A stretch of 64,000 nt of DNA from a virus (lineage: Duplodnaviria > Caudoviricetes): IMG/VR virus record IMGVR_UViG_3300020046_004224, one strand, 5' to 3'. The translations under genes and the position numbers were made by a program. Each line of letters begins with the position of its first letter. Position 1 is the first letter of the stretch. Under the pieces are notes generated by a model. The model did not search any database. It saw only the letters and a program-made list of their open reading frames with translations, and was not told the origin of the DNA. Positions 5,123 through 42,939 of this stretch are shown here, piece by piece.

Positions 5123-5660
5123 GAAATTAGCAAAAGAATATTATAAACCCGACAATGATACTGTGGATTGGTCTAAGCTCGTAGGAAAAACATGCGTAGT
5201 TGAGGTATACAACCGGCCAAATAACACACGGCTTATCAAAGAATTATATATTATAGATTTCGAAGAGACTAATAATATTATAAAATTTAAATACGATAGC
5301 GATAAAGATTCACAATGGTTAGGGCTTGATAGTTATACGGATGTCAACTTTAGACTTATTTTTGTGTTTGAACCTATAAAACCCGAGGAACCGAAAAACT
5401 ATAAAGATTTATCACTGATTCTCGAAGAGGCCAAAAAGAATAATGAATATATTCCACCGAAAAATCCTCTAAGACCGGTATATCCATACAACCCAGGATG
5501 GGATTATCCTGTTAATCCTCCGTCATGGCTGAAACCGAATAATCCACTTCAACCATATTGTTTAGAGAACGATATGTTTAGAGTGCATGATCCGATATAC
5601 TCCCATCAAAAGGAATACGATGATCATGAACCTTGGACTTGCCACGATCTACAAAATTAA
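5106..5660 (+). CDS. hypothetical protein, Pro-rich C-terminus
   Basis: coupled ORF. Confidence 0.6.
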   Translation: MMKTIKKLAKEYYKPDNDTVDWSKLVGKTCVVEVYNRPNNTRLIKELYIIDFEETNNIIKFKYDSDKDSQWLGLDSYTDVNFRLIFVFEPIKPEEPKNYKDLSLILEEAKKNNEYIPPKNPLRPVYPYNPGWDYPVNPPSWLKPNNPLQPYCLENDMFRVHDPIYSHQKEYDDHEPWTCHDLQN

Positions 5661-5665
5661 TTTAA

Positions 5666-6205
5666 ATGGAAAATATAAACACATTCATCTTGCCGGAAAT
5701 TAAAAAACCGGAAAAACCAAAAAAAGAACCTAAGAAAATTCTTGATACTAAAGAACGTTTGACACGAACCAATCGAGAGGTTACGTGTGCATACTGCAAC
5801 GACTTGAAAATTCTTAATCCAGATCAATATCAACTTTTATATGATATTCATGGGTCAGATGAAAAGATTGCAGATGAATATATGTGCAAACCTTGTGAAA
5901 TGAAATCTAAGAATAATCCAGTAGAATTCTGGATAACACATGGAGAACTTTTACAAAATCTTTCTAAAGACCTGAAAGATATGTTTGATGCATTCAACGG
6001 GTCGTTTAAGACTCAGCAAGACCTGACAGTATTACAAAGTATTGTGACAGGAAAATTAAAGGAGTCTAAAATAGTATCTTTTAATATACTTCTTTCCCGT
6101 GACAACCTCGCCAAAGGTGTCCAAATAAAAGATTTCCCGTTTGTGGGAACAATAAATCTAAAAATATATGAACAAAGAAAAAATCGGATCGAAGTTATCA
6201 GATAA
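5666..6205 (+). CDS. hypothetical Zn-binding protein
   Basis: CAYC...CKPC. Confidence 0.6.
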   Translation: MENINTFILPEIKKPEKPKKEPKKILDTKERLTRTNREVTCAYCNDLKILNPDQYQLLYDIHGSDEKIADEYMCKPCEMKSKNNPVEFWITHGELLQNLSKDLKDMFDAFNGSFKTQQDLTVLQSIVTGKLKESKIVSFNILLSRDNLAKGVQIKDFPFVGTINLKIYEQRKNRIEVIR

Positions 6206-18639: not shown

Positions 18640-19578
18640 TTATCTGTAGAGATAATCTGGTAGATTGAAATGTTCTTTAACTTTATTCGCAGCGTCTATC
18701 TCAGAAGAAAATCTCAAATAGACGATCCCCTTCTTATCTTTCTTCAACGAAAATATCCATTCATCTCTCTTCGAATCATACGAAACATATTTGTATTTTG
18801 ATTTTGGGATATAAACTGTTTTGATTTTTTTATTGATTGCTTTATTCTGTCTAGAAAATGGTGAAATATTTTTACTGTCAATATTATAATCTTTACACCA
18901 TTTTTTAATAGTATTTCCAGTCTTTAACCCAAAATTCTTTGCCACACATTCCATTGATTTAGTAGTCAATAATAAAATCAATTCCTCTTTGGATGGACGG
19001 ACAGCTTTACGTCTACGCTCTCCATCACATGCGATACACTTACCTCTTTTATTATTTTTACAAATAACATTATCACACTTTTCACATCGAGGCAGAGTTT
19101 TCTTATGCCTTTTTCCTGCATAAGTCTCTGTCTGTGAATGACAGTTGGGGCACAAGAATGATAAATTGGATATTGTGTTATCGTCTGATATTCCGTTTTT
19201 ATGTTCCAGTTGTAGAGTGAGTGATTTATTATTCCATTCTGGAAGAATCCCACATTCATCACATATATATGGTACTAAATTAAATCTTAAAACGTATATC
19301 TTTACTTGATTTCTTGATATATATAACTTATTATCTATAATATCTCTAAACTTAGCTTCCGTCATCGTTCGAGTCAAAATAGATGATTTCTCTCTATTAA
19401 GAAAGTGGGAATGATCTACATTCAGAGCTTTCATTCGTTGTTTACATGTAATAAAATTATTACCTTTATTTTGTAATCCGAATGTTCGCAACAATTCCGA
19501 CATCGTTTTTGAATTTTTGACTCTTGTGATGAACTCATCATCAGGTATTGACCATATTATACTAGTTCTTTTTCTCAT
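18640..19578 (-). CDS. HNH homing endonuclease with HTH and AP2-like C-terminus
   Basis: LQLEHKNG...DN..SNL.FLCPNCHSQT; SKYKYVSY......W. Confidence 0.88.
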   Translation of the reverse strand: MRKRTSIIWSIPDDEFITRVKNSKTMSELLRTFGLQNKGNNFITCKQRMKALNVDHSHFLNREKSSILTRTMTEAKFRDIIDNKLYISRNQVKIYVLRFNLVPYICDECGILPEWNNKSLTLQLEHKNGISDDNTISNLSFLCPNCHSQTETYAGKRHKKTLPRCEKCDNVICKNNKRGKCIACDGERRRKAVRPSKEELILLLTTKSMECVAKNFGLKTGNTIKKWCKDYNIDSKNISPFSRQNKAINKKIKTVYIPKSKYKYVSYDSKRDEWIFSLKKDKKGIVYLRFSSEIDAANKVKEHFNLPDYLYR

Positions 19579-23784: not shown

Positions 23785-24822
23785 ATGAAAAAATGTTTAA
23801 TATGCGATTTATCTCTTAGTGGCAAACAACGATTATTCTGTTCCAGATTATGTAAAGACAAACACTATGCAACCATGGATGATTCTTTAGACGCACCTCT
23901 TATAGAAGAAATAAAAATGTTGTATAATAGTGGTTTAAGTTTTCGACATATAGCAATACTAAAAGGTATTCCCAAACTCGTTCTTTGGAAATTAGGGCGA
24001 ACGGGGGTGGTCCCTTCCCGAACACGGGGTCAACAAGCAACTTTAACCAATACAGGACGCACACAAAGTCCAGAATCTAGGGAGAAAATATCCAAGGCAA
24101 GAAAAAAATTCTTATCCGAGAATCCAAATATGGTGCCGTATAAACTAAATCATAAGCACACCAAAATATCTTACCCAGAACAATACTTCATAGAATGTTT
24201 TCAAAACAAATTCGTCTATCAGCACAGAGTTTCAACATATACCTTAGATTTTGCTGATATCGAAAATAAACTGGATATAGAAATTGATGGATGTCAACAT
24301 CGTTTAGACCCTAAAATTGTTAATCATGATTGGAAAAGAAACATATACTTAACTGAACATGGATGGAATGTTTTACGAATAAACTGGTCAATCTTTAAAA
24401 GTCTTCCACCAGAAAACCAACGAAATATAGTGAAAGATATACTACAGGATATTGTTCCTAGTTCTTCGTCGATATCGTTCTATCCAGCAAACATTGCTAT
24501 ATCTAATGAAGAATTTATGATAAATATTCAGAGATTAAAGAATCGTAATATATGTCCTATATGTGGTTCGCATAAATGTGCAGAATCTATAAACTGCTCC
24601 AAATGTGCAGGCAGCACCCGAGTTAAAATACCCTGGCCCTCTGTTGAAGAAATGTCAAAGATGATCTGGGAAATTCCTGCAACTCGGATTGCACAAAATA
24701 TGGGAATATCAGACAATGCTGTTATCAAATTCTGTCGAAAACATAATATCTCAAAACCAGAGCGTGGATATTGGCAAAAACTATATGGTGGAGACACGGA
24801 GAGTCGCGCTCCGAATTCCTAA
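23785..24822 (+). CDS. homing endonuclease (NUMOD3 + DUF559/Vsr-like)
   Basis: TGRTQSPESREKIS, YTLDFA.....LDIEIDG.QH...R..YL...GW.V.RI.W. Confidence 0.82.
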   Translation: MKKCLICDLSLSGKQRLFCSRLCKDKHYATMDDSLDAPLIEEIKMLYNSGLSFRHIAILKGIPKLVLWKLGRTGVVPSRTRGQQATLTNTGRTQSPESREKISKARKKFLSENPNMVPYKLNHKHTKISYPEQYFIECFQNKFVYQHRVSTYTLDFADIENKLDIEIDGCQHRLDPKIVNHDWKRNIYLTEHGWNVLRINWSIFKSLPPENQRNIVKDILQDIVPSSSSISFYPANIAISNEEFMINIQRLKNRNICPICGSHKCAESINCSKCAGSTRVKIPWPSVEEMSKMIWEIPATRIAQNMGISDNAVIKFCRKHNISKPERGYWQKLYGGDTESRAPNS

Positions 24823-24860
24823 TTGCAAGTTAGGTGTGTTACTGTTAGCACTATGCCCCC
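24786..24860 (-). tRNA. tRNA-Ala(TGC)
   Basis: CCTAA-CTTGCAA-TTAGG, G3:U70, ACCA. Confidence 0.9.
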
Positions 24861-24871
24861 TTATATCTTTA

Positions 24872-24946
24872 CGGTCTAGATAGTGAGTACCGCCCTCACA
24901 TCCACTGAATCCCAAATTCAGGGCATTACTTGTCTGCCATATCTAG
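24872..24946 (-). tRNA. tRNA-Pro(TGG)
   Basis: CTGAA-TTTGGGA-TTCAG, C1-G72, A73. Confidence 0.8.
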
Positions 24947-25009
24947 ATTAAATCTTTCGGAAAATTATAAACTTAATATTCCCTGCCCTTGTCAATTCAA
25001 GTCGTTATG

Positions 25010-25084
25010 TGCCGATTGCGGAAGTCGAATCCGCATTTTCCAGTTTGAAAAACTAGTGCTCTAGTCCAGTTAAGCTAAATCGGC
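25010..25084 (-). tRNA. tRNA-Glu(TTC)
   Basis: CTAGT-TTTTCAA-ACTGG. Confidence 0.78.
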
Positions 25085-25095
25085 TTTTGTGAAAT

Positions 25096-25191
25096 TGGTG
25101 GGCGGGAATTCTCGCTATTATGAAATACGTTTCACGATACTTTCAGCCATACGAGCTTAGGAAATCATGAGGTACTTGTCAAGCGCCGCCC
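25096..25191 (-). ncRNA. ACCA-tailed structured RNA without a cloverleaf
   Basis: GGGCGG/CCGCCC-ACCA, CGCT/AGCG, GTGAAA-CGTA-TTTCAT. Confidence 0.6.
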
Positions 25192-25220
25192 ATTTAAAAC
25201 TATCTTTTTAATTGATTATA

Positions 25221-25455
25221 TTTTACAAAAGGTGTGCTTCTACGCCAAAGAAGAATCAAGCCTTACCAGTTACGGGGTACTCTTTTACTTTCCACGGTTA
25301 GACGGTATCCAACTTGAGTATCAATATCTAACTTTGATATACTCAAGTCACCACAATCATTAGTTACTTAAAACTAACTCGTTGGCATCGGAGGCCCGCG
25401 TTTCGCTTCACTCATTAAAGATGGCTGCTTCTAAGCCAACTACCTTTTTATAAAA
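25221..25455 (-). ncRNA. 23S rRNA GTPase-associated-centre (H43/H44) mimic RNA
   Basis: GTTGGCTTAGAAGCAGCCATC...TTTAATGAGTG[insert]GCGTAGAAGCACAC closed by a terminal stem. Confidence 0.8.
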
Positions 25456-25461
25456 AAAACT

Positions 25462-25577
25462 TTCTGATTATAGGACTCGAACCTATACCTACTTAATGTC
25501 GTATCTAATACTCTAGTCGGAATTGCACCGATTTCCGCCCCTCGACGGGGTTGTGCTGCCATTAACACCAAATCAAA
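25462..25577 (-). ncRNA. tRNA-like RNA with two T-arm-like hairpins
   Basis: TTTGATT/AATCAGA, D arm GTGT/GCAC, TCGG-TGCAATT-CCGA and ATAGG-TTCGAGT-CCTAT. Confidence 0.55.
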
Positions 25578-25580
25578 AAT

Positions 25581-25655
25581 TGGCGTCCCCTGTTGGAATT
25601 GAACCAACGTTTATAGTTCGAGAAACTATTATCCTAACCGCTAGACGAAGGGGAC
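25581..25655 (-). tRNA. tRNA-Glu(CTC)
   Basis: ATAGT-TTCTCGA-ACTAT, GTCCCCT/AGGGGAC-GCCA. Confidence 0.9.
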
Positions 25656-25680
25656 ATTTGCTACTACTCACTAAGATACA

Positions 25681-26001
25681 TCAGGTTTCAGAAGAGTCAA
25701 GAAGTTTTTGAAATTCTCGGAGCTTCCAGATCATACTCAATGCATACTTCATTTTGAGTTCTTCTCTTGAAAACATTTTTGGGTCTTCTGCTATCTTGTA
25801 TTCGCCACCAGAATGATTGCAATATTCTTTCCAAGAAACTCTCTTCATTTCAGGAGATTCATCATAATCAAATTTAGGAAATGCACCATAACTATAGAAT
25901 CCAACATGCTTGCCCACCTGAACATCACATTCTTGATGCTCTAGCAAATCTTTCTCTAGTGCATTTGCTGCAAAATATGCTAATAATATGTTTTCATTCA
26001 T
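25681..26001 (-). CDS. hypothetical protein
   Basis: ORF. Confidence 0.55.
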   Translation of the reverse strand: MNENILLAYFAANALEKDLLEHQECDVQVGKHVGFYSYGAFPKFDYDESPEMKRVSWKEYCNHSGGEYKIAEDPKMFSREELKMKYALSMIWKLREFQKLLDSSET

Positions 26002-26019
26002 TCTATCATTTCTTAATTT

Positions 26020-26097
26020 TGGCTCCTACCCGTGGTTACGATCCACGCTTATCGAGATTAACAGTCTCGCGCTTAACACCAAGCCAGCCCGATAGGA
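26020..26097 (-). tRNA. tRNA-Asn(GTT)
   Basis: CGAGA-CTGTTAA-TCTCG, G73-CCA. Confidence 0.88.
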
Positions 26098-26100
26098 ATT

Positions 26101-26337
26101 TTATATTCTCGTTTCTTTATCCAATTCGACGAACTCTTTCCATAAACTCAAAATTTCTTCTTTTTTCGACGAATTGTTCATTTTGAACACCGTCTTTTCT
26201 TTCTCCCATAACTTAACATTCATTTCGAAATCGTCAAACGCTTTGTCTAATCTTTTTCCTTGGTCAATAACTTTTTGAACTCTTTCTATAAATTCTTTAT
26301 CGATTAAATCAATATCATATTGAAAAGAATTATCCAT
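26101..26337 (-). CDS. hypothetical protein
   Basis: ORF. Confidence 0.5.
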   Translation of the reverse strand: MDNSFQYDIDLIDKEFIERVQKVIDQGKRLDKAFDDFEMNVKLWEKEKTVFKMNNSSKKEEILSLWKEFVELDKETRI

Positions 26338-26523
26338 ATATTAATCTGCCGCTCTGTTTATTTCAAATGCTTCTAACCCACACACCTTTGCAACAGTACC
26401 ATCTTCACAGTAAAGTGCAACTTCTAATCTCTGCGTCTGCTCAACTTTGACAACTTTTTTACCTTTATAGTGTGGATAAAATGATAAAACGTATTGTGCA
26501 GTTTCTATCTTATTCATAAATTT

Positions 26524-26599
26524 TGGTTGCTTGAGTCGGTTACGATCCGACCTATATAGTTCTTCAAACTATCGCTTTCACCAGATTAGCTTTCAAGCA
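26524..26599 (-). tRNA. tRNA-Phe(GAA)
   Basis: ATAGT-TTGAAGA-ACTAT, CCA. Confidence 0.88.
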
Positions 26600-26625
26600 A
26601 TTAATATATTTCTTTAATCATTTTT

Positions 26626-26817
26626 GCCGTTTCCGGCCCTACACCACCCGTTCTTAGGTTGTGTCACTCTATTATTATTTGCCGTATTTGAGTTAATAAT
26701 TGAAACCTCTCGTCGGATGCTCCGAACGGGTTTCCCTCTATCGGAGTTATGAAAACTGTATATTTCGTTCCCCAATGGGTGTAAACGAAACCACAGTCCC
26801 GGTCTTTGCCGGACTGC
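26626..26817 (-). ncRNA. unknown ~190-nt structured RNA
   Basis: series of GC-rich hairpins in an AT-rich genome, ending GCCG-GAAA-CGGC. Confidence 0.6.
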
Positions 26818-27898: not shown

Positions 27899-30800
27899 AT
27901 GATTTTAAATAGTGTCACATCAGCCGCAGCGTTCCCAACCGAAGAACTTGTAATAAATATTAATGATGTGTCCCCTGCATTGAATAATATTCGAACAGGT
28001 GTTCGCTATACATATTATCAATATAATAACTCAGATAAATTTTTAACAAACACATCTTACTCACTGTCATCTATTGCAACGGAAGTAGACTTTAATAATG
28101 ATCTGTATCAGCCGACAACTTCTGCCAATCTTCCCGGCGATTTTCCGGTTAAATGGACAATAAATCACACATCAGTTCCTACCAATACTAATCACTTCCT
28201 TTATTTGACATTCCTTGGTGGTGCATCTGCAATATCAGTCCATCCAACCCAGCCTTATCCAATAGTAACAAAACTATCAAATAGCCAGATGACGGTATCG
28301 TGTGGTATGTTACCATTTCAGTCATATGAAGGAGAAGTCACAAAAGACGATTTTCGCCATGATCTTTCTACATCTTTGGTGAAAAATGCATCAACCTTTG
28401 GTATGACTTTTACCGTTTCGTTACCGTATATATCCAAAGGAAGACGAGATTTTGTTTTTGCTAATACGAAAAATTACTCCAATACACTGAAAGCAACCCT
28501 CGATAAAAACATAATCGGAAATAGTTTTAGTGTTACAGTTCCATTGGTATCTGCCAAAACCCAAACCGACTATACATGGAACACTGTTTTATATGATAGA
28601 ACATCATTAGTGACATCCCAAAATACAGAATCAATAACATTGACATCATTATCCTCGGAAGAATTACAACAAGAAGTCGGTGTAAATGCCCCTTATTTCG
28701 GAACATCGACCCTCAATCTTGCAACAGGTGCATTGAACTTGATTACAAAAGCACCTCTATTAGTGGCAGGAAATGATACAATCATATGCACATACGAAAC
28801 ATCTTCTGTATTATCTCCTTCTGAATATACGGTAACTACACCAGGAGCAAATTATTTCAACATATCGACAAACACAAATCCTATCTATTTTTACAACTAT
28901 GGTTTTAGATATTCAGGAACAGGTGTAACCGCAAAAGATGCATTCACTGTTAGTTTTTATCCTTCTGCTGGTATTACTGCAACCGGGACATCCGACTCTC
29001 TGGGAGTATCGTCTGTATATGTGTCAACTGTTTTCAACGATAGTTTCTTCCAAACATCGTATCCTATAGAAATAAATTCATCAAACATGAAAAAGCGTTT
29101 CATAGAACGATCCGATGATTATTCTCTTAGTGCATTTGATGTTGCCACAAACATTCTTTATAAAAATAATCAATGGATGCCTGCAAGTGCCGTGATGCGA
29201 TTTGTGAATGATGGGTTAGGAAACAATTATACTGCGGGAATACAATTAAGTTCTAAAATAGGAGCAATTTACAATTGTACAGAAGATGTTAATTTCCTTC
29301 TTAATAATAAGAATATTGTATTTTCATTATATCTAACAGAATATGATGATGTTTCTGCCCGTGTAAATGCCGTGGTATTCCCTTCACCCGATCCTGAACT
29401 GTTAATAAAGTGGGGTGCATTTCCTCCAGAAAATATAACACTGAGGGATGTCAACACTGGTCAAGAATTGGAACTTGGTGAATATTATCCTGCGGGAGAC
29501 ATCGAGGTAGATGTTTACAATCTCGGTGTAGATAAAACTCAAATAACCTTGTATTCACAAGAATTTGAAACCTCTGCAAGCACTTATTGGTTTCCATCTT
29601 CTTCTGTTATAGGTGATGTGTATTTAGAAATTCGTGATAACCTTACCGATTATAATCCAACAAACACAGGAGAGATAAGTGCATTCTTCAATAGACGTGG
29701 ATATTTATACCGTGTTCCGACCAATGCGAATATCATATGGTCCGAACGTATAAATTCCGATCTCGGTACCATAAGGTTCAATACTAGAGATAATGCTCGA
29801 CTCATAGAGGAATCGACCGTTTATCCATCAACTATAAATTATTCAGTGATGCAGGCATCGGTATCTACTCTTCCTGTTATTAAGAATCCATCAAGAGTCG
29901 CATTCAGTATATCTTGTAATGTGTTTGATGAGGATTATTCTATAGAAGGTAACAGATTAATTTATTTCCGTGCATACCCCGAAGACATACTATTATACAT
30001 GATAGCATCGTCGGGAGTGGGGTATGAGGATAGTAGTGAACGCACCAATATAATATCAACAACTTCTGGAATTTGGTCATTATCGGCCCAATATCCTAAT
30101 CTTGTTATCGATTCGTTATCTAGTATAATATGGACTAGTCATAATTCCAACGGAGTCACATTAACTGGAAGTGGTGATACATTCTCATTAACTTTAAGTA
30201 CTCTATCTGCATATGTGAACATCTCGGCTGCAAATGTCACACCGTTCTTAGGTAACTTCAAAAGTTATAATTTTTATGATACATTGAATTTCTATCTACT
30301 TTCATCACTTCCTGTTATGGATTATATAGGGTTTCCTGAATTTAAATATGATACTACCGGAAAAACACAGTTAACATATAATACACGCACCGCCTCCCAA
30401 GGTATGACATCATATAATCCATGTCATACAGAGAATTTCTTATTCTCTGCAACACCTGGATTTACTACATATAAATGGTCTTTGGGTAATTTGAATATAA
30501 CTACAGATTCCAATCTTGTCACCATTCCTGTAGAATATTCAGATATCTCTGCATCGGGACTTATTCAGCTATCCGCCTTTAATGATGTATTTCTGGAGTC
30601 GGATCAAAAAACAGTTTATAATTTTGTATCATCAGATAATTCAACCAAATATAAACAAGATATAGATTTTATAAACTATAAAGATAGTTCAATAACACTG
30701 TCTGTTGATAATGATCTTTATGATACTTCTAAATATACATCTAGACCGTTGATGTCAGTTGTTATAGACACCAAAGACCTAATGTTAAATTCATTTGACA

Positions 30801-41673: not shown

Positions 41674-42939
41674 CTAAATCTTAATATTTTCAAAACTATT
41701 CGGTAACATCAATTCTTTTAAATCGATCTTAACTGGATTGAACACCAAACCCGATACTGGCTGGATAAAATCATCACCAGTTACTTTCCTCATAATATTA
41801 ATTGCGCCATTTAAGTCTGCATTAATAAATTTACCTCTACTACTTTTAAAGAGTCCCCTTTTTACTCTTCTACCTAAATAATTTTCATGTTTTTTAACAT
41901 GTTCATTATCTAATGAACTACATTTAGACGTATAACTTTCTTCATTAATAGTAAATTTAATACCTACTTCAGTTAATTTATATCGAAGCATTTCTTTAAA
42001 TTTAAAATAAGGAATAGAATTAAACTTCTGATTATTGATATTTCCTATATTAATATTTTGTTTCCATTCTTTATTATACCCTATTATTACTTCACTTACC
42101 AGATTTTTAATACAAAATTTTACTAGAAAGTTGCTGTATTGGTGAAAGTAGTTAGAAATATAACCATGTCTATGATCCTCTAGTTTTTGTAGTTTTCTCG
42201 ACCAATGTTTATCATTATCTGTTTTCAGTAGGGACTTAACTTTTGCTTTCTTCTTATTATAATAACTATTATATGATTTTAAAGGTTTACCATTCAGAAT
42301 GAACGGTCTAGTTACTGTTGAATAAACTGCTGCAAAATTATTTATTCCTAAATCAATACTTATTTTATTAGTGTCTACGGTATTAATCTGTGGTTTTATC
42401 TCTTCTCTATAGATCAACATTAATTTAAAATATTGTCCATTGTTGATTGGTTTTAGCACCACTTGCTGAACTTTACCATTAATTTTGCTATTATATTTGA
42501 CTGATATTTTAGGCACGGAATTTATAGATTTATAGGTTCTACTAATTGCTAATTGAATTTTTCCATCTTTTAAAATAAATGATTGATTAGTAAAATAGAC
42601 ATCGTACACACCTCCCCTTTTCCTATATTTAGGAATAGATATATTTCCCGAATATTGACCTTTATTCTTTTTATTTAACACGGATAAGAATGATCGGAAA
42701 TTTTGATCAATCAATTTGACTATTTGTTGAGAACAATGAACTGGTAATAGTTTATAATTTTCATTGGCACATACTAATTTGTCTAATTTAAATCTGCCGA
42801 TATATTTTCTAGTTTCTTTAAAATATTCATTTACGATATATAAACAATAATTGTAGAGATTATTTGAGTAATGAGAGTAATTCAGAAGATGTTTATAATC
42901 TTTTGAATTTGTTTTTACTTTTGAATGTAGCACTCTCAT
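41674..42939 (-). mobile_element. tnpB: TnpB RNA-guided nuclease (IS200/605/607 family), no TnpA
   Basis: SIDLGINN, IIGYN..WKQ, EESYTSKCS, R.KRGLF, INADLNGAINI. Confidence 0.92.

Follow-up and report, generated by a model that had tools for sequence, protein, structure and literature searches.

A phage RNA that resembles the GTPase-associated centre of 23S rRNA: a tRNA-cluster element and candidate off-ribosome decoy

We analysed a 64,000-nucleotide stretch of viral DNA (Duplodnaviria; Caudoviricetes; IMG/VR record IMGVR_UViG_3300020046_004224), hereafter the window, and describe an RNA element of ~226 nt on its minus strand whose two ends very probably imitate, as a conserved fold, the GTPase-associated centre (GAC) of bacterial 23S rRNA (E. 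coli positions 1051-1108). The element is a stand-alone RNA domain and not part of an rRNA gene, as had been proposed from the sequence without database searches (the sequence-only reading): it copies the top of helix 42 (H42), H43 and H44 together with the nucleotides of the uL11 surface, and its H44 is split by a folded insert of 164 nt. Comparison with other phage sequences confirms it as a member of a large phage RNA family, whose members in IMG/VR number in the hundreds. The explanation that we judge best overall, although we would stop just short of expecting it to be right, is a stable RNA of a tRNA cluster that has a GAC-like fold and acts as a decoy off the ribosome.

Locus, core fold and family

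Read from 25449 to 25223, the minus strand is AAAAAGG-UAG-UU-GGCUUAGAAGCAGCC-AUCU-UUAAU-GAGU, followed by the 164 nt of the insert and then by GCGUAGAAGCAC-A-CCUUUUG; on re-reading, the letters quoted in the sequence-only reading proved to be the same. The block GUUGGCUUAGAAGCAGCCAUC is E. coli 23S 1059-1079 with no difference, which bears out the exact 21-nt match around the A1067 loop. The A1095 loop is likewise kept beyond the insert, within GCGUAGAAGCAC, and the ends of the element pair into the closing stem that had been described. With the insert removed, 38 of the 48 positions from 1057 to 1104 equal those of E. coli (besides the 21-nt block, 1082-1085, 1087-1088, 1091-1095, 1098-1100 and 1102-1104). 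The changes at 1058/1080 and 1090/1101 are compensatory, and the pair 1057-1081 is missing on both sides. The reference was the E. coli GAC 60-mer GGGCAGGAUGUAGGCUUAGAAGCAGCCAUCAUUUAAAGAAAGCGUAAUAGCUCACUGCCC, which carries U1061A and altered ends (PMC1802607). An exact 15-mer at 25423-25437 occurs a single time in the window, with 0.02 occurrences expected even when two mismatches are allowed. The parts of the element, in rRNA numbering where this applies, are:

25223-25449, minus: whole GAC-like RNA, ~226 nt, delimited by the match to covariance model R1 (25223-25448) and by reading of the sequence
25443-25448, minus: 5' strand of the H42-like closing helix, AAAAGG, pairing with 25227-25232
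25419-25441, minus: H43 copy with the 1067 loop (A1067 is 25432, U1060 is 25439), 1059-1079 as in E. coli
25414-25418, minus: junction UUAAU (1082-1086), with U1083, A1084 and A1085 invariant or nearly so
25410-25413, minus: 5' strand of H44, GAGU (1087-1090, A1088 is 25412), G1087-C1102 and U1090-A1101 kept
25246-25409, minus: structured insert of 164 nt between 1090 and 1091, defined by covariation in the clade of the window
25234-25245, minus: 3' part of H44, GCGUAGAAGCAC, with the 1095 loop (A1095 is 25241) and pairs G1091-C1100 and C1092-G1099
25227-25232, minus: 3' strand of the H42-like closing helix, CCUUUU, partner of 25443-25448

At the base of H43, both A1058-U1080 and G1059-C1079 are kept, whereas positions 1082 and 1086 of the window member are U and U. 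The two halves of H44, GAGU and GCGUANNAGCAC, retain U1090-A1101, and A1088 and its putative distant partner U1060 are both present.

Rfam 15, searched at gathering thresholds over the whole window and at E-values up to 10 over 24700-26700, returned tRNAs only. There is thus no match to large-subunit rRNA (RF02541) in the window, no other rRNA sequence flanks the element, whose neighbours are tRNA or tRNA-like, and no family matches inside it even at E up to 10. The minimum free energy fold of the single sequence does not recover the GAC fold (z -1.7), so comparative evidence is needed.

We gathered the family with sequence patterns. At least 120 IMG/VR loci match the pattern GGCTTAGAAGCAGCC, most of them with the layout of the window and not that of a 23S gene, and a script found the 3' half (GCGUNNNAGC) and the closing helix in at least 84 of the 121 IMG/VR matches listed; IMG/VR members are 64-534 nt long. 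A covariance model of 167 positions, R1, was built from 21 other members with the window left out. On the 64-kb window it gave a single match, 25223-25448 on the minus strand, which spans positions 1-167 of 167 at 76.2 bits (E 4.3e-20, R1 E-values being rough). When bacterial and archaeal assemblies were scanned with the 3' half, 29 true elements were found, nearly all on contigs of metagenome-assembled genomes; about 90 of 120 genome-contig matches to the 3' half were set aside as chance matches without the 5' half, and seven named isolate genomes tested with the model gave no match. A 51-nt core query matched the cultured phages Aeromonas 4_4572, Pseudomonas pf16 and UNO-G1W1, Paenibacillus Pd_22F, Cronobacter GAP32, Serratia BF and Pectobacterium CBB as well as Erwinia, Xanthomonas and Vibrio phages, where the core is unannotated; outside Pseudomonas and Aeromonas, the evidence consists of 15-mer or pattern matches. 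Homologues that keep both halves, as the sequence-only reading anticipated, therefore occur in IMG/VR, on genome contigs and in cultured phages (pf16 and Aeromonas 4_4572 and, judging by IMG/VR loci, apparently GAP32 and CBB). The two cultured-phage elements scored with the model reached 80-91 bits:

KU873925.1, ~29413-29603, minus: element of pf16, filling the gap between tRNA-Asn and tRNA-Pro
MK813943.1, ~75082-75367: element of Aeromonas 4_4572, model-scored

Each of the four complete carrier genomes has one copy. The incomplete record L068 (L numbers designate individual members) has two divergent tandem copies, 5126-5363 and 5444-5709 on the plus strand, about 80 nt apart, and in the first of them G1087-C1102 is swapped to C-G. 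Two members without an insert, L085:4350-4414 (minus) and L017:3712-3775 (plus), are bare GAC domains like the 58-mer with a short closing helix.

The pairs of the core covary in three sets of sequences. For the first, 72 non-redundant elements were parsed by anchors and chosen partly on pairing. Among these, 94.7% of core-pair cells are paired against 70.8% after shuffling, and double changes occur in 254 cells against a maximum of 103 in 1000 shuffles. The H42-like helix differs in sequence in every family member but its pairing is always kept: its six pairs take all four Watson-Crick types, and 93% of cells are paired compared with 35-43% when the partner strand is slid. Pair 1058-1080 is UA in 27 elements, GC in 24, AU in 17 and CG in 4; pair 1057-1081, absent from the window member, is AU in 57, CG in 7 and GC in 1; and pair 1082-1086 is UA in 36, CG in 17 and AU in 6. 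Because this set was partly selected on pairing, the count was repeated on the 29 genome-contig elements, which were not so selected. H42 is paired in 25-29 of these at each position and the base of H43 in 26-29, pair 1082-1086 is UA in 12, CG in 13 and AU in 2, and compensatory changes occur even within the upper H43 stem. In the 21-sequence seed, without the window, 96.8% of cells are paired (72.7% when shuffled) and 115 are compensatory (35 when shuffled).

U1060 and A1088 are invariant in both the 72 and the 29 elements (72/72 and 29/29), as are G1091-C1100, C1092-G1099, G1093, U1094, A1098, A1084 and A1085, and A1095 is kept in 68 of the 72. We take these invariant bases to be those that hold the domain in its tertiary fold in rRNA, as in the structures of Wimberly and Conn (1999). 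The invariance of both U1060 and A1088 suggests that they form a tertiary contact. The family also has a signature of its own, G1089 with U1090-A1101, at positions where E. coli has A1089 and A1090-U1101. This signature is present even in the enterobacterial-phage members L015 and L057, which argues for a single origin and spread among phages and not for repeated capture from hosts.

Two kinds of variation were seen around H43. Purine changes in the 1067 loop (GGCUUGAAAGC, GGCUUAGAGGC, GGCUUGGAAGC) occur in the genome-contig elements L138, L145, L160, L169, L186, L188, L198, L207 and others; since these members were found by their 3' half, neither A1067 nor A1070 is invariant across the family. 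Roughly every sixth member (L005, L021, L031, L035, L062, L067, L088, L098, L112, L115, L117 and others) has an extra hairpin of 20-60 nt after A1077.

The insert in H44

Inserts of the family range from 0 to 470 nt, those present forming a continuum from 41 to 470 nt with differing architectures. We aligned the insert of the window with the homologous inserts of L042, L047, L059, L125 and L068a. In the model for this clade, 98.4% of cells are paired, compared with 34-42% when partners are slid, and there are 16 compensatory pairs against 4.1 in shuffles. Its elements are:

25406-25409, minus: 5' strand GAAG of P-a, the helix that closes the insert, pairing with CUUC at 25250-25253
25360-25377, minus: variable hairpin UUAGUU/AACUAA, replaced by another hairpin at the same place in relatives
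25311-25349, minus: long hairpin S1 (GACUUGAGU/ACUCAAGUU), nine pairs, 100% paired
25297-25302, minus: 3' strand UCUAAC of pseudoknot S2, pairing with GUUAGA (25327-25332) in the S1 loop
25254-25286, minus: hairpin module P-z, present in 19 family members
25246-25249, minus: linker UUUG before G1091, nearly invariant in a 73-sequence alignment

All four pairs of P-a covary in the family seed, with G-C becoming U-A in L068a, and P-a together with the UUUG linker turns H44 into a three-way junction. Six of the nine S1 pairs have changes on both sides. The pseudoknot is 97% paired, two of its pairs are compensatory, and its variants are GUCAGA/UCUGAC in L042 and GAGAUA/UAUCUC in L068a. P-z consists of two outer pairs, tandem purine-purine pairs, GAGU/GCUU and A-CCCC-GUAAC-UGG-UAA-GG. 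The pairs 164-196 (AU in nine members, GC in nine), 165-195 and 169-171/189-191 covary, and the GNRA-like tetraloop is UAAC, UAAA, GAAA or GAGA. As GNRA-type and purine-pair modules usually make tertiary contacts, the insert seems to be a buttress or an extra surface.

The sequence-only reading had folded the insert by three helices, of which two stand. GACUUGAGU/ACUCAAGUU is the S1 hairpin with its compensatory changes in relatives, and UUAGUU/AACUAA holds for the window, where relatives have CCU-AGUA-AGG or CCC-AGCA-GGG instead. The third, GGGCC/GGCUU, was given up because it conflicts with GCUU-GAGU (25279-25282), which covaries in 19 members. Other candidate helices were also rejected. L068a retains the pseudoknot but not the apical stem AUAUC/GAUAU of S1, and none of the helices drawn by hand (insert nt 45-72, CGCGG/CCGUG, GGC/GCC and UCC/GGA) is kept in L042 and L068a.

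We also looked for a sarcin-ricin loop (SRL), using the bulged-G hairpin AGUA-C-GNRA-G-GA(A) as the test pattern. The candidate in the window insert, AGUAAAAGAGUACC (25277-25290), was discarded: it matches at only 11 of 14 positions, and its bases form other pairs, which covary. Good sarcin-ricin hairpins occur in two large inserts, AGUACGGGAGGAA in L050:3688-4064 (minus) and AGUACGAAAGGAG in L106:8575-8988 (minus). These two members thereby bring together both of the elements that rRNA contributes to the factor-binding site, the GAC and the SRL.

Genomic setting

The element sits, as the sequence-only reading stated, among tRNA genes: ARAGORN and Rfam place it in a cluster of 17 tRNAs on the same strand, between two tRNA-Glu genes that both programs call:

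25581-25655, minus: tRNA-Glu(CUC), upstream
25009-25084, minus: tRNA-Glu(UUC), downstream

Immediately next to it lie two tRNA-like elements not called by ARAGORN. The upstream one (25462-25578, minus, 117 nt) combines an acceptor stem of 7 bp and a canonical T arm, GGUUCGAGUCC, with extra hairpins in place of the anticodon and variable arms, and scores only 16 bits with the Rfam tRNA model. The other (25095-25192, minus) is a long hairpin without a T arm, in which a G+C-rich 7-bp acceptor-like closing stem, GGGCGGC/CCCGCCC, is followed by ACCA (fold z -2.8); it may be a minihelix-type substrate of RNase P or the CCA enzyme, or another mimic. There is no open reading frame (ORF) downstream of the element in the window.

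This setting recurs in the family. Same-strand tRNAs lie within 3 kb of 58 of 85 elements and opposite-strand tRNAs of none (0/85); 47 of the 85 have a tRNA within 300 nt, many at 1-12 nt. The strand and closeness of these tRNAs fit release of the RNA by RNase P and 3' tRNA-processing enzymes. No protein family recurs beside the element in the 85 loci, the largest cluster comprising four.

PHROG matches in the window (a terminase/PhoH-like ATPase, an endolysin domain, HNH endonucleases and a transposase) point to a large divergent phage. Two HNH endonuclease ORFs lie within the tRNA cluster (18640-19578, minus; 23785-24822, plus), and the transposase (phrog_506) is at 41674-42939 (minus). BLAST against GenBank phages gave no match for the element region or for a 12-kb stretch, the cultured phages named above being reached through the 51-nt core only, and the helicase/PhoH-like protein of the window has distant matches only (<40% identity).

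Possible functions and relation to known systems

Isolated GAC RNA is a classic high-affinity ligand of uL11 and thiostrepton. In the rRNA, the uL11 C-domain contacts 1058-1060, 1062-1065, 1075-1083 and 1088, and the uL11 N-domain/thiostrepton pocket is formed by 1067-1070 and 1095-1098 (PMC1802607). In the window RNA, the C-domain contact nucleotides are identical or compensated except for the deleted 1057-1081 pair, and the pocket positions are present. Since the C-domain contacts and the tertiary-fold nucleotides are both kept, the free RNA should bind host uL11. No uL11 gene was found in five carrier genomes, of which four are 97% complete or better, by a search that succeeded in all 14 control genomes, so the partner, if it is uL11, would be that of the host.

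A decoy of the uL11/factor site, free-standing in the cell, is the function that we favour, with confidence that falls short of an even balance. The RNA would be transcribed within the tRNA-cluster transcript as a stable non-coding RNA and probably cut out by tRNA-processing enzymes. Its ends would fold into the three-dimensional GAC domain, made up of the top of H42 and of H43 and H44 with their A1067 and A1095 loops, respectively; the 164-nt domain would enter the 5' strand of H44 and make a three-way junction there. The free RNA would then bind host uL11, and the complex would display the 1067/1095 surface off the ribosome, where, during infection, it would compete with ribosomes for the readers of that surface and thus be a decoy or sponge. 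The sequence-only reading also suggested titration of the uL10-bL12 stalk, which appears less likely because the lower part of H42 with its kink-turn is replaced by a plain helix of 6-9 bp. This lower part is presumably where uL10-bL12 binds.

Several points weigh against the favoured decoy. What a phage would gain from titrating uL11 is not obvious. A1067 is changed to G in 5 of the 29 unselected elements, which also have changes at 1068 and 1070, and this variation of the 1067 loop is looser than that of bacterial rRNA. In 12 of the 72 members, the second hairpin at 1077/1078 lies inside the uL11 footprint, where it might hinder uL11 in those members. Because the family was gathered with patterns, conservation at the pattern positions holds by construction.

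The same features can be read in other ways. It is possible, although we think it unlikely, that the RNA, with or without uL11, is a counter-defence decoy that draws off a host effector or toxin directed at the GAC or the stalk base. Such a role would parallel that of phage tRNAs which replace or shield tRNAs attacked by anticodon nucleases, and it would suit an element of a same-strand tRNA cluster, presumably processed alongside the tRNAs, that is widespread in large tRNA-rich phages of many hosts, has no partner protein encoded beside it, and conserves its fold-defining nucleotides while its loops tolerate purine changes. No defence system that targets GAC RNA was found in the literature, however, and to our knowledge none has been described; moreover, the sequence does not separate this role from plain uL11 binding. 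We give about the same low weight to the idea of a free "stalk-base particle", made of the RNA and host uL11, at which tRNA elbows, RelA or translational GTPases would dock off the ribosome, in which case the SRL-bearing relatives would be complete miniature factor-binding sites. The fuller form of this idea is a little less probable still: that the RNA-uL11 complex binds tRNA elbows, RelA-tRNA or GTPases and thereby blunts the stringent response or diverts factors. The co-location with tRNA genes and the SRL-type hairpins (AGUA-C-GNRA-G-GA) in two sampled members, L050 and L106, agree with it, and isolated GAC and SRL oligonucleotides reportedly bind EF-G in vitro (Munishkin and Wool, 1997, as cited elsewhere). 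In the RelA complex, A1067 stacks on the elbow of the A/R-tRNA (PMC5829649). The window insert, on the other hand, has no true SRL, which counts against this form. The affinities of factors for isolated rRNA pieces are also weak.

The remaining explanations have little to recommend them. Imitation of rRNA by mRNA leaders is a well-known principle, but a cis-regulatory leader, which would govern a downstream gene by binding a ribosomal protein in the manner of autogenously controlled ribosomal-protein operons, is very improbable here, given the missing downstream ORF, the lack of a conserved neighbour protein in the 85 loci and the absence of a match to any ribosomal-protein leader family (e.g. 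RF00557) in Rfam at E up to 10. We find it even harder to credit that the element is a miniature pair of rRNA exons split by a self-splicing intron. The insert does follow U1090 and end with UUUG before G1091, and its removal restores GAGU-GCGUA as in the uninterrupted L085 and L017. No group I (RF00028) or group II model matched at E up to 10, however, and a P1 or internal guide pairing was sought and not found; the insert is closed by its own covarying P-a with the conserved UUUG linker, as in a three-way junction, and the continuous sizes and differing architectures of the inserts also speak against introns, so this reading was rejected. No more credible is the view that a piece of a host 23S rRNA gene was captured and lies inert. 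It would account for the high identity of H43 to rRNA, but not for a closing helix that changes its sequence and always pairs, the abundance of compensatory changes, a signature unlike host rRNA even in enterobacterial phages, or the maintenance of a single copy across very different phages.

Genes for tRNAs, tmRNA and a few ribosomal proteins are already known from phages. We found no earlier description of a stand-alone gene that copies a functional centre of rRNA: a literature search over about 8.4 million full texts gave no phage RNA linked to the GAC and no such motif in a phage context, and a published survey covering over 10,000 candidate structured RNAs of phages mentions no rRNA-like motif. 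That no family had been described, as the sequence-only reading supposed, thus agrees with both Rfam 15 and the searchable literature. The family is under strong constraint exactly at the nucleotides that build the uL11/thiostrepton/GTPase site. If its members bind uL11 or factors off the ribosome, they would represent a new viral route onto translation or ribosome-directed immunity, and would provide natural variants, already tested by evolution, of a classic RNA-protein and antibiotic target. If they form docking-site particles, such RNAs, by imitating a functional centre of the ribosome, would make up a viral effector class of a new kind, through which host translation might be reprogrammed or shielded or a ribosome-directed defence disarmed. 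Cultured carriers exist, which makes these predictions directly testable, and the insert-free L085 and L017 are useful minimal constructs for binding work.

Among known systems, the bacterial GAC itself is the closest. The phage RNA shares its secondary structure, the identical 21-nt H43 block with A1067, the U-U-A-A-N junction, U1060/A1088, G1091-C1100 and C1092-G1099. A1095 is common to both, in a loop that reads GUAGAA in the phage RNA and GUAAUA in the bacterial GAC. In contrast to the rRNA domain, the phage RNA is free-standing at ~226 nt, and the rest of H42 gives way to an unrelated helix of 6 bp; it has the insert of 164 nt, a deleted 1057-1081 pair and G1089 with U1090-A1101, and it lies among tRNA genes instead of in an rRNA operon. 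Autoregulatory ribosomal-protein mRNA leaders (such as that of L10, RF00557, and the sites for L1 and S8) also imitate the rRNA site of a protein off the ribosome, but they are cis-acting and cellular and resemble rRNA in small motifs only, whereas the phage RNA has neither a downstream ORF nor an Rfam match and copies a whole domain almost letter for letter. Synthetic "ribosome-in-pieces" oligonucleotides (thiostrepton-domain and sarcin-ricin-domain RNAs; Munishkin and Wool, 1997, as cited elsewhere) and the 58-60-mer of uL11/thiostrepton structures (PMC1802607) likewise offer an isolated GAC with an arbitrary closing helix. Such GAC constructs fold and bind uL11 and thiostrepton in vitro, and reportedly also EF-G; they are made in the laboratory, whereas the phage RNA comes from a natural gene and has an additional domain. 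In the last group, phage tRNAs, tmRNA-like RNAs and YrlA-type Y RNAs share its tRNA-cluster setting and its probable release by tRNA-processing enzymes, but these RNAs mimic tRNA, and the phage GAC RNA mimics a domain of rRNA.

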